Source of the DNA: Bacilli bacterium
GTDB lineage: Bacteria > Bacillota_I > Bacilli_A > RFN20 > CAG-826
Direction of reading: 5' to 3'
DNA length: 64,000 nucleotides
NCBI GenBank assembly: GCA_041653015.1
Contig: JBAZGG010000001.1
Span: forward strand, 53,206 to 117,205
The stretch's first letter is position 1. Each line of letters begins with the position of its first letter. The translations under genes were made by a program, and so were the position numbers. Below, piece by piece: positions 40,836 to 43,088 of the stretch. The notes under the pieces were generated by a model. The model ran no database searches. It was not told the DNA's origin and saw only the letters and a program-made list of their open reading frames with translations.

Positions 40836-42359
40836 ATGCAATGGCTATTAAAATTTAAAGACTCACTACTGTCGGTTTTGCCAATTTTTGTAATTGTCTT
40901 GCTTTTAAATTTTACTGGTCTATCTCCATTGAGTATCAATGAAACGATTGCCTTTTCAGTATCTTGTGTTCTCATAGTGTTTGGAATGGGACTATTTACC
41001 AATGGGACAGAGACCTCGATCTCTAAAATTGGCGAATATGTTGGATCATCAATCACGAAGAGAAAAAGTCTCATTTTAATAATATTTCTGTTTTTTTTAT
41101 TAGGCATTTTTATAACGATTGCCGAGCCCGCTTTGTCAGTGCTTGCTGAACAAGTGCCAATTAATAAATGGCTATTTATTGTTTGCGTTGGTCTCGGCGT
41201 AGGTTTTTTCTTATTAATTGGCGTATTGCGAATTCTATTTCGAAAAAGTTTAAAACTATGGCTTTTAGCATTCTATGGTTTGCTTTTTGCTCTAGCGTGT
41301 CTCGTCGATAAATCATTTATTCCGATTTCATTCGATGCTGGTGGAGTCGCAACTGGTCCGTTGACCGTTCCATTCATTATGGCCATCGGAATCGGCATTT
41401 CCTCCTCGCGCGCTGGCGAACATTCGGACTCAGACTCTTTCGGCTTAACCGCCCTATGTTCAATAGGACCAATTATCACTGTCATGATTTTTTCGATGTT
41501 GATGGACAAGTCGCAATTGAATTACACATTCGAGCTTAACTCGATTGGAGACAATTTATTCCAAGCATATCTCTATGGATTCGGCAACGCCGCTTTTCAA
41601 GCCTTGCTATCTATTTTACCAATCATGGTTTTTTTCATAATCTATCAAGCGATTTTTATTAAACTGCCCGCAAAAACTATTTTAAAAATATTGATCGGTC
41701 TCATATATACATATTCTGGTTTAGTCGTTTTCTTAACCGCTGTTCAAGTCGGTTTTTTACCGATTGGCAAGTCAATAGGCATGGACTTAGGTCAAAACGG
41801 AAATGCTATGTGGCTGCTTCCTTTAATAGGCTTTTTCCTCGGTCTGTTTACCGTTCTTGTCGAACCGGCTGTGCCAATTCTCATTTCACAGGTGCAGAAC
41901 GTTTCCGATGGTGCGATTAAAAAGCGCCCAATTTTCATTGCTCTATGCACCGGTGTTGCCAGTGCTGTGTGCTTATCGATGGTGAGAATTTGTTTTCACA
42001 TTCCTTTAATTTATTTCTTGGTTCCCGGCTATGCTCTAGCCATGTTTTTGTCTTTCTTTGTTTCTGACATATACACCGCCGTAGCATTTGATGCGGGAAC
42101 TGTTGCTTCGGGAGTGATGAACACAACATTTATTTTGCCTTTTGCTGTTGGTGCGTGCTATGTTTTAAATGGAACAGAACAAAGTTCATCAGCTATTATG
42201 AGCGATGCTTTTGGCATCGTTTCGTTGGTGACATTAGCACCGATTATATCTATGCAGATTATCGGTCTTGATTCCACGATTAAAAGAAGGATTGCGCTCA
42301 AGAATGCGAGATATAGAATCAGAGAGGAAAACGATGCTCAAATTATTCATTTTGAATAG
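40836..42359 (+). CDS. DUF1538-family polytopic membrane protein (duplicated)
   Basis: 507 aa, very hydrophobic, with two similar halves. Followed by PII-like genes as commonly seen for this family. Confidence 0.6.
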   Translation: MQWLLKFKDSLLSVLPIFVIVLLLNFTGLSPLSINETIAFSVSCVLIVFGMGLFTNGTETSISKIGEYVGSSITKRKSLILIIFLFFLLGIFITIAEPALSVLAEQVPINKWLFIVCVGLGVGFFLLIGVLRILFRKSLKLWLLAFYGLLFALACLVDKSFIPISFDAGGVATGPLTVPFIMAIGIGISSSRAGEHSDSDSFGLTALCSIGPIITVMIFSMLMDKSQLNYTFELNSIGDNLFQAYLYGFGNAAFQALLSILPIMVFFIIYQAIFIKLPAKTILKILIGLIYTYSGLVVFLTAVQVGFLPIGKSIGMDLGQNGNAMWLLPLIGFFLGLFTVLVEPAVPILISQVQNVSDGAIKKRPIFIALCTGVASAVCLSMVRICFHIPLIYFLVPGYALAMFLSFFVSDIYTAVAFDAGTVASGVMNTTFILPFAVGACYVLNGTEQSSSAIMSDAFGIVSLVTLAPIISMQIIGLDSTIKRRIALKNARYRIREENDAQIIHFE

Positions 42360-42367
42360 GTTAAATT

Positions 42368-42784
42368 ATGACAGAAAAACAAGATAAAAAATTTGTTCCA
42401 TATGAGCATGATCATCCATTGAAAAAAATGAAATTATTTTTTGTTATCGTGAATGATGGTCAAGCTGATAGCGTTATCGCTCGTTTGCATGAATTGGGAT
42501 GCGCTTGCTCAGTGGTGACAAATGCTCAGGGAACGGCAAAACAAGAAAGCTATGAACTTCTCGGTTTTGGCAATCCCAAAAAACAGATGATTATCGCTTT
42601 AATCAATGAGCAAAGTATCGATGAAATCATCGGTTATCTCGAAAGCCGATTTCATGTTTCTAATGCCGCAAAGGGTGTTGCGTTTTCATTAAAAATATCG
42701 AGCATAATTGGAGTATCAATATACAAATTTTTGACTGATACAAGAGAAAATAAGGAGATAAAAAAACATGGAAAGACAAAATGA
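42368..42784 (+). CDS. PII-like (GlnB-fold) protein, divergent paralogue 1
   Basis: Aligns with the downstream PII-like ORF (FFVIVNDGQADSVIARL...GVAFSL versus IMCVVNSGFADLVMGAA...GIAFSI). Confidence 0.55.
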   Translation: MTEKQDKKFVPYEHDHPLKKMKLFFVIVNDGQADSVIARLHELGCACSVVTNAQGTAKQESYELLGFGNPKKQMIIALINEQSIDEIIGYLESRFHVSNAAKGVAFSLKISSIIGVSIYKFLTDTRENKEIKKHGKTK

Positions 42785-43088
42785 TTACGAGATGATTATG
42801 TGCGTTGTGAATAGTGGCTTTGCTGATCTCGTTATGGGGGCAGCAACGAGAGCTGGAGCAAAAGGTGGCACTGTATTCCATGGTCGAGGGACCGGAAAAA
42901 AAGATATGGAAGATTTCTTTGGCATCGTGATTACTCCTGAAAAAGAAGTGGTAATAATTCTTATTCCGAAAGAGATTAAAGACCATGTCCTAAATGAAAT
43001 ATACAAAGATGCTGGACTCGAAACAAAAGGTCAAGGCATCGCCTTTTCAATCCCGGTTGACGATGTTGTTGGTATTGAGACAAAATAA
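42768..43088 (+). CDS. PII-like (GlnB-fold) protein, paralogue 2
   Basis: About 106 aa with a GlnB-like pattern including a Gly-rich loop GRGTGKKD. RBS AAGGAG upstream. Overlaps the previous gene's end. Confidence 0.65.
   Translation: MERQNDYEMIMCVVNSGFADLVMGAATRAGAKGGTVFHGRGTGKKDMEDFFGIVITPEKEVVIILIPKEIKDHVLNEIYKDAGLETKGQGIAFSIPVDDVVGIETK

Follow-up and report, generated by a model that had tools for sequence, protein, structure and literature searches.

The window analysed here is a stretch of 64,000 nucleotides from a Bacilli bacterium (contig JBAZGG010000001.1). Between positions 40,836 and 43,088 it carries a cassette of three co-directional open reading frames (ORFs), whose coordinates were reproduced by an ORF check of the window. 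The first encodes a membrane protein of the DUF1538 family, and the other two encode small PII-like proteins, here called PIIA and PIIB. Together the three genes probably form a PII-gated secondary transporter, perhaps a cation/proton exchanger by analogy with UmpAB, that is served by a heteromeric PII unit.

The DUF1538 gene (40836..42359, + strand) encodes a putative transporter of 507 residues in which two repeats are fused in one chain. Its stop codon is separated by 8 nucleotides from the start of PIIA (42368..42784, +), a divergent PII-like protein of 138 residues. PIIB (42768..43088, +; 106 residues) overlaps the PIIA frame by 17 nucleotides, its start lying that far ahead of the PIIA stop. 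A ribosome-binding site for PIIB, AAGGAGA (42752..42758, +), can be read directly in the sequence within the 3' end of PIIA. The overlap and this site suggest that translation of the two PII genes is coupled, and that the two proteins are produced in similar amounts.

The DUF1538 protein matches Pfam family PF07556 in two copies, with 394 bits against a cutoff of 22.6 and an E-value of 1.4e-118. In a self-alignment its N- and C-terminal halves are 27% identical (E 1e-17) and the protein is thus an internal duplication, so that the duplicated DUF1538 membrane protein named in the initial annotation is confirmed. The N-terminal repeat (residues 17-221; 40884..41498, +) is the best Pfam stretch, and includes E97 in an AEP motif and D167 in an FDxGG...GP motif. 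The C-terminal repeat (residues ~255-475; 41598..42260, +) is placed by the alignment of the two halves and contains E343, R384, D419, and S425. Across 82 homologues these four residues never vary, and neither do E97, D167, and T177. One search, in which 8,000 candidates were scored, found at least 3,047 DUF1538 relatives.

The AlphaFold2 (AF2) model of the protein is all-helical, with a mean local confidence (pLDDT) of 90 and a predicted template modelling score (pTM) of 0.89. In each repeat, helices break at the conserved AEP/EPA and FDxGG...GP motifs. In the N-terminal repeat these breaks fall at residues 95-98 and 171-177. The topology was derived from the positive-inside rule applied to the DSSP helices of the model, not from its coordinates. 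For a 7+7 inverted arrangement, the 82 homologues have a mean of 22 lysines and arginines on the predicted inside, compared with 5.7 on the outside. This supports a reading with seven spans per repeat, in which the second repeat would have the opposite orientation to the first, with both termini in the cytoplasm. Ion-coupled secondary transporters are typically marked by inverted repeats, discontinuous helices, and buried carboxylates. A comparison with the PDB gave no solved structure that resembles the model, and no match of its fold to any known cation/proton antiporter.

The C-terminal tail of the protein carries a short motif, consisting of an acidic residue, two isoleucines, any residue, and an aromatic residue. 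A loose pattern for this motif matches 80 of the 82 homologues. It reads NDAQIIHF in the window (42330..42353, +), DDEQIIxF in most relatives, those with separate PII genes, and DDDAIIEL in loci with a PII fusion. It is missing from DUF1538 of Peptostreptococcales and of the alphaproteobacterial type. The tail is predicted to be cytoplasmic, and the motif is a candidate docking element for PII.

Both small proteins score above the Pfam P-II (PF00543) cutoff of 25 bits, PIIA with 27.4 bits and PIIB with 35.5 bits. They are 24% identical to each other (E 4e-12), and a profile-profile comparison relates the PIIA family to the PIIB family with a probability of 98.3% (E 1e-14). All three proteins of the cassette therefore lie above the cutoff of their Pfam family, and the two small ORFs are paralogous, divergent, and overlapping, as had been proposed. 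The proposal also extended to the fold. The AF2 model of PIIA has the beta-alpha-beta-beta-alpha-beta order of a ferredoxin-like PII protein, with strands at residues 21-29, 47-53, 72-80, and 104-109 and helices at 33-42 and 81-97. An extra C-terminal helix follows at residues 113-122. The top Foldseek matches of this model in the PDB all belong to the PII superfamily (PstA, GlnK1, CPII, and SbtB), with PstA of S. aureus first, and so agree with it. PIIB can be aligned end to end with the sequences of GlnK and NifI1, and the best PDB sequence match of its family profile is the NifI1 chain of entry 9p1x (E 1.8e-8).

PIIA in particular escapes annotation. A search with the single PIIB sequence, based on a word index, returned 57 close matches, and the search for PIIA was therefore made with a profile. 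This profile finds 2,139 proteins, nearly all of them without a Pfam label, and those that are named are called "hypothetical protein". At E <= 1e-10 it finds 1,390 clusters (50% identity) among 1.84 billion representatives. Of the top 150 clusters, about 25 have a protein with two domains as their representative. Even within the PIIA family defined below, Pfam P-II matches 44 of 80 members at E <= 0.01, such that about half are missed.

Evidence for a functional unit comes from gene order. The genome sample contained one genome per bacterial species, and the loci compared are the best 80 of at least 591 confirmed matches, a choice biased toward relatives of the query. The profiles used for counting PIIA and PIIB were built from the same 80 loci, after a first detection with the window proteins only. 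Most of the loci belong to Clostridia and Bacilli of the gut and rumen, and a few to bins labelled Bacteroidia. Their fused DUF1538 proteins are 41-51% identical to that of the window. Wherever at least 900 bp of downstream sequence is available, the order is DUF1538, PIIA, PIIB (71 of 71 loci). The remaining 9 loci lie on short contigs, and what downstream sequence they have fits this order.

In 22 of the 80 loci, PIIA and PIIB are fused into a tandem protein of 224-279 residues, with the PIIA domain first. Candidate fusions of this kind are also found in cultured organisms. In Paraclostridium bifermentans, Peptoclostridium acidaminophilum, and Vescimonas fastidiosa, a fused DUF1538 gene is followed by a protein of 222-224 residues that RefSeq names "P-II family nitrogen regulator". 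Profiles confirm two PII domains in the Paraclostridium and Peptoclostridium fusions.

Clustering of the flanking ORFs in the 80 loci revealed no other conserved neighbour gene. With an invariant order and no further conservation on either side, the cassette stands as a module of its own. The adjacency of DUF1538, PIIA, and PIIB is far above chance, and the co-occurrence that the initial annotation had put forward as a check is borne out here as well as in the more distant branch described next.

On alphaproteobacterial plasmids, those of Methylocystis and Chelativorans, DUF1538 is encoded by two separate genes, and one PII gene follows them. Among 80 metagenome loci of this split type, all 60 that have at least 400 bp of downstream sequence contain exactly one PII gene. 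The PII proteins of the split branch are of the PIIB type, scoring about 100 bits against the PIIB profile versus about 40 bits against the PIIA profile. The link between DUF1538 and PII thus spans more than one branch, and exists in one-PII and two-PII versions.

The simplest history starts with an ancestral pair of DUF1538 genes and one PIIB-like partner. In the branch of the Bacillota, the transporter genes would then have fused and the PII gene duplicated, after which the first copy degenerated. In the fusions of Peptostreptococcales, the first PII domain has retained GITGGT or GIRGGT (compare the strand 2 motif below), which fits an intermediate stage in the degeneration of PIIA.

Some of the split cassettes stand in a mobile context. 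On the mobilizable Methylocystis rosea plasmids L081 and L086 the cassette adjoins IS66 transposase genes, and the module may therefore move horizontally. An IS4 transposase gene and a SulP transporter gene are also nearby on L081. On a Chelativorans plasmid (L082:4726-4998), the first DUF1538 gene encodes 90 residues. Annotated as "DUF1538 family protein", it looks like what is left of a truncated gene, and the cassette on this plasmid may thus be in decay.

The residues kept by the two PII families were compared by aligning the families to E. coli GlnB. PIIA and PIIB have in common the Gly-Thr-Ala/Gly at the T-loop base (GlnB 35-37) and the second glycine of the B-loop (G89). The lysine equivalent to K58 of GlnB is kept in 95-97% of both families. 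Within PIIA, conservation is 100, 100, and 93% for the Gly, Thr, and Ala positions, 95% for K58, and 100% for G89. In the PIIB of the window, K59 is the equivalent of K58 and the GxG of the B-loop is present. Both families have a T-loop 5 residues shorter than that of GlnB, and a B-loop that aligns to GlnB 82-92 without insertion. Other positions have changed in both families, with K90 replaced by isoleucine, R101 by glycine, and R103 variable. These three residues bind phosphate in canonical PII proteins. The ligand is thus unlikely to be bound in the way that canonical PII binds ATP.

The two families differ on strand 2. There PIIB has a nearly invariant GxxGGT, with GGT in 75 of 76 members, and an arginine at GlnB position 34. 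GGT occurs in only 1 of 80 PIIA members. PIIA instead has a conserved pattern in its C-terminal helix, G...YxFL, found in 54 of 80 members and present in the window as Y119xFL122. Every ligand cleft in PII crystal structures is built by two neighbouring subunits, one of which gives its T-loop base and B-loop. The second, as in structures of GlnK and GlnB with ATP, also gives residues 27-29 of strand 2. In NifI, the C-loop of the second subunit contributes to the cleft (bioRxiv 10.1101/2025.09.09.675011). Judged from these residues, PIIA appears to have kept the face of the cleft made of T-loop base and B-loop, and to have lost the GGT face.

These comparisons also bear on whether the small genes could be ordinary GlnB or GlnK nitrogen regulators that lie beside a membrane gene by chance. 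The RefSeq name and the Pfam P-II matches would fit such an assignment. The canonical PII signatures are found in 0 of 156 domains (80 PIIA and 76 PIIB), while the E. coli GlnB control matches both. The two patterns, after PROSITE, were a T-loop signature, Y-[KR]-G-[AS]-[AE]-Y, and a B-loop signature, [ST]-x(3)-G-[DY]-G-[KR]-[IV]-[FW]-[LIVM]. With both signatures absent, PIIA and PIIB are not GlnB or GlnK proteins. The loop with Tyr51 is likewise absent from all 156 domains, and E. coli GlnB reaches only 19.6 bits against the PIIB profile. Together with the short T-loop, the replacement of K90, R101, and R103, the linkage in 71 of 71 and 60 of 60 loci, and the lack of adjacent amt, gln, or nif genes, this effectively refutes the explanation.

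The PII pair is therefore best regarded in relation to its neighbour, and is likely to be a dedicated regulator of the DUF1538 transporter. In the proposed mechanism, the transporter would consist of two homologous seven-helix repeats in opposite orientations, with its termini in the cytoplasm. Four buried carboxylates, namely the invariant glutamate of AEP and the aspartate of FDxGG...GP in each repeat, would be the likely sites for ions or protons. By analogy with UmpAB, a DUF1538 pair discussed below, a monovalent cation may be exchanged for protons. PIIA and PIIB, made in roughly equal amounts, would join as one regulatory unit at the cytoplasmic face. In this unit PIIB would be the subunit competent for the ligand, and PIIA its degenerate paralogue. 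In a shared ring, the T-loop base and B-loop of PIIA would face the GGT strand of PIIB. If PIIA keeps only its half of the cleft, only some of the pockets between subunits would be functional. When a small ligand binds, the short T-loops would shift and thereby switch the transporter between open and closed, in the manner of GlnK on AmtB and SbtB on SbtA.

The initial annotation had spoken of a dual PII sensor cassette. The pair itself is strictly conserved (71 of 71 loci), and this part stands. Two independent sensors are less likely than one heteromeric unit with unequal pockets, which is suggested by the fusions in 22 of 80 loci, the lost face of PIIA, the co-occurrence of the two proteins, and their overlapping genes. 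Such a unit may be built either from mixed A2B and AB2 rings or from stacked A3 and B3 rings.

The same annotation had called the transporter uncharacterised, which is only partly correct. The UmpAB protein of Halomonas zhaodongensis is a DUF1538 pair whose activity in E. coli KNabc is reported as Na+(Li+,K+)/H+ antiport, and each of its subunits is predicted to have seven transmembrane segments (PMC5484666). The family thus has one report of antiport. The window protein is only a remote relative, which scores 152 and 120 bits against the NCBIfam models for UmpA and UmpB (NF041627 and NF041628), far below their cutoffs of 490 and 500. By sequence it is a homologue of UmpAB, not an equivalog. 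A weak but independent hint toward cation/proton transport is that a machine-learning study, judging by SHAP (Shapley additive explanation) values, lists DUF1538 with Mrp, Kdp, and Trk as key Pfam families for the prediction of optimal growth pH (PMC13255231). By analogy, the substrate may be cations exchanged for protons, although this part of the proposal is held tentatively and falls short of being likely.

Several observations weigh against the proposal of a PII-gated cation/proton exchanger. When umpA and umpB alone were subcloned and co-expressed, they were reported to be active in E. coli (PMC5484666), and a PII partner is thus dispensable, at least in that branch. The paper does not mention any PII partner, and the characterisation considered no PII subunit (PMC5484666). 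Because the scores of the window protein are far below the UmpA and UmpB cutoffs, the transfer of the UmpAB substrate is tentative. The Methylocystis pair does no better, with 111 bits against the UmpA/UmpB cutoff of 490. Neither an upstream riboswitch nor a conserved neighbour points to a substrate. Scans at Rfam gathering thresholds, covering the window and 11 loci with long 5' intergenic regions, gave no riboswitch upstream of the cassette. Their only matches were an unrelated T-box on the opposite strand, a tRNA, Gut-1, and the transfer-messenger RNA (tmRNA) of the window. A scan for promoters and terminators gave matches at background level and was uninformative.

The regulatory part of the proposal has its own difficulties. 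That PII contacts and gates the transporter is argued from gene linkage and from the analogy with GlnK-AmtB and SbtB-SbtA, and no fusion of DUF1538 with PII is present among the proteins listed. For PIIA, the AF2 model reaches a pLDDT of 68, which is moderate confidence only. The assignment of GGT to one face of the cleft and of the T-loop base and B-loop to the other is carried over from PII crystal structures rather than computed. Finally, the 1:1 ratio implied by the fusions is a poor fit to a single three-membered ring.

Other explanations were weighed as well. A PII-gated DUF1538 transporter could carry another solute, such as bicarbonate, ammonium, or an organic or inorganic anion. The distance from UmpAB would then be less surprising, as would a fold unlike that of any known cation/proton antiporter. 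The PII-transporter pairs in the literature carry ammonium and bicarbonate, and the neighbours in distant loci are mixed (SulP, ClC, GntP, and P-type ATPase). Yet the sole experimental datum for the family is cation/proton antiport, four invariant carboxylates embedded in the membrane suit a cation and protons better than an anion, and no genes of carbon or nitrogen metabolism are linked in the 80 loci. Another solute is therefore rather unlikely, though it is the most serious of the competing explanations. A further idea is that DUF1538 acts mainly as a membrane sensor or anchor, while the PII pair, kept at the membrane or set free from it, works on an unlinked target. AmtB is also a device for sequestering GlnK, PII proteins usually have several targets, and both the extra helix of PIIA and the tail motif of DUF1538 could serve as tethers. 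Such a role is improbable given the transporter hallmarks of the protein (inverted repeats, broken helices, and buried invariant carboxylates), the ion transport by its relative UmpAB, and the lack of a second target gene conserved beside the cassette in 80 loci.

As another alternative, PIIA and PIIB could form separate homotrimers and act independently, as two sensors for two ligands on the same transporter. Homotrimers are the normal state of PII, the two families have remained distinct over long evolutionary distances, and a 1:1 fusion fits the geometry of A3 and B3 rings that are stacked or side by side. In such a PIIA trimer, all pockets would lack the GGT face, yet the opposite face is invariant, and this is best explained by pairing with PIIB. 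The split branch also manages with a single PII, and the mixed ring has a precedent in NifI1,2. Separate homotrimers are accordingly unlikely, about on a par with a different solute or slightly below it, and the heteromeric unit is preferred.

The heteromeric, PII-gated transporter can be compared with several known systems. UmpAB belongs to the same Pfam family and likewise has two homologous DUF1538 units acting together. In the cassette, these units are fused in one chain and the PII pair is invariably linked.

In the GlnK-AmtB and SbtB-SbtA systems, as here, a small gene of the PII fold lies directly downstream of a transporter gene, and a T-loop is present. There the PII or PII-like protein plugs the transporter of its own operon. 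The cassette differs in having a transporter of another family and fold, two unequal PII paralogues, and a shorter T-loop. Unlike in GlnK-AmtB, there is no Amt gene, the genes nearby being those for DUF1538, an RluA-type pseudouridine synthase, and YfhO. In contrast to SbtB-SbtA, the partner is DUF1538, and PIIA and PIIB have no C-terminal pair of cysteines (the CGPxGC loop).

A parallel for the PII pair is found in NifI1 and NifI2, which form a heterotrimeric PII complex in a 2:1 ratio that inhibits the nitrogenase of methanogens (PDB 9p1x; bioRxiv 10.1101/2025.09.09.675011). These are also adjacent paralogous PII genes whose products form one complex, with unequal ligand pockets as a feature of NifI. 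An alignment of NifI1 with the PIIB profile needs a single one-residue insertion across the T-loop region. The target of NifI is a soluble enzyme, NifI keeps the residues for ATP/ADP and 2-oxoglutarate, and its 2:1 stoichiometry differs from the 1:1 implied by the fusions here. No nif genes were found in the neighbourhood of the cassette in the window or in related loci. Entry 9p1x was considered as a solved DUF1538-PII complex and rejected, being the nitrogenase-NifI supercomplex of a methanogen.

An association of PII with cation/proton transport has been described before. PII-NG (Sant'Anna et al. 2009) is presented in PMC7726332 as PII-like genes linked to the czcABC metal/proton antiporters. 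As described there, PII-NG resembles the cassette in being a non-canonical PII clade genetically tied to cation/proton transport, and differs in its partner, the RND-type (resistance-nodulation-division) CzcABC, and in having a single PII gene.

Finally, PstA/DarA of Firmicutes, which binds cyclic di-AMP, shares with PIIA and PIIB the PII fold, the phylum, and a short T-loop. PstA has a long B-loop, and its genes stand alone and are not linked to transporters. A Pfam scan of PIIA and PIIB gives P-II only, and their B-loop has the canonical length.

Few signalling proteins are as widespread as those of the PII type, and only some of their transporter partners are understood, mainly AmtB and SbtA. 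DUF1538 would add a new and large family of partners, mostly in gut and rumen Bacillota, with a link that is invariant in the loci examined. The adjacency is already visible in RefSeq labels. In the literature searched, no paper was found that treats DUF1538 together with PII, and no description or interpretation of the adjacency was found. The cassette points to a widespread, undescribed on/off switch for a transporter, and possibly to a new transporter fold. A bolder and more tentative version of the proposal, which is possible without being likely, is that DUF1538 represents a structurally new class of secondary transporter, with a dedicated PII in all branches sampled, and that its version found mostly in Bacillota uses an obligate heteromer of PIIA and PIIB in which one partner is a half-degenerate pseudo-subunit and the ligand is other than ATP or 2-oxoglutarate. 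If the heteromer exists, it would follow NifI1,2 as the second known heteromeric PII complex, and no earlier one would be attached to a transporter. The cassette is present in cultured strains, including Paraclostridium bifermentans DSM 14991, Peptoclostridium acidaminophilum DSM 3953, Vescimonas fastidiosa MM35, and Mobilisporobacter senegalensis DSM 26537, as well as in Methylocystis rosea.

Other genes border the cassette. In the window, an RluA-type pseudouridine synthase gene lies upstream with a gap of 54 nucleotides. A YfhO-family membrane protein (PF09586) of 1009 residues is encoded 137 nucleotides downstream (43226-46255, +). An RluA-type gene lies upstream in 8 of the 80 loci, and one cluster of ORFs of about 1,100 residues lies just downstream of the cassette in 6 of 80 (compare L001, L007, L016, and L058). 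The RluA and YfhO flanks are local synteny among close relatives and not part of the module. In two loci (L058 and L061), the Bacillota-type cassette occurs in bins labelled Alistipes shahii and Bacteroidia, which reflects either horizontal transfer or mis-binning.

Elsewhere in the window, an ORF of 870 residues (33883-36495, +) encodes an Orn/Lys/Arg decarboxylase domain (OKR_DC_1, residues 9-462) fused to an agmatine deiminase domain (PAD_porph, residues 515-864). It is followed by a carbon-nitrogen hydrolase of the N-carbamoylputrescine amidase type (36453-37364, +). By their domains, the two genes look like a complete route from arginine to putrescine. At gathering thresholds, the tmRNA gene (22391-22776, +; 126 bits to RF00023) represents the window's sole Rfam family.

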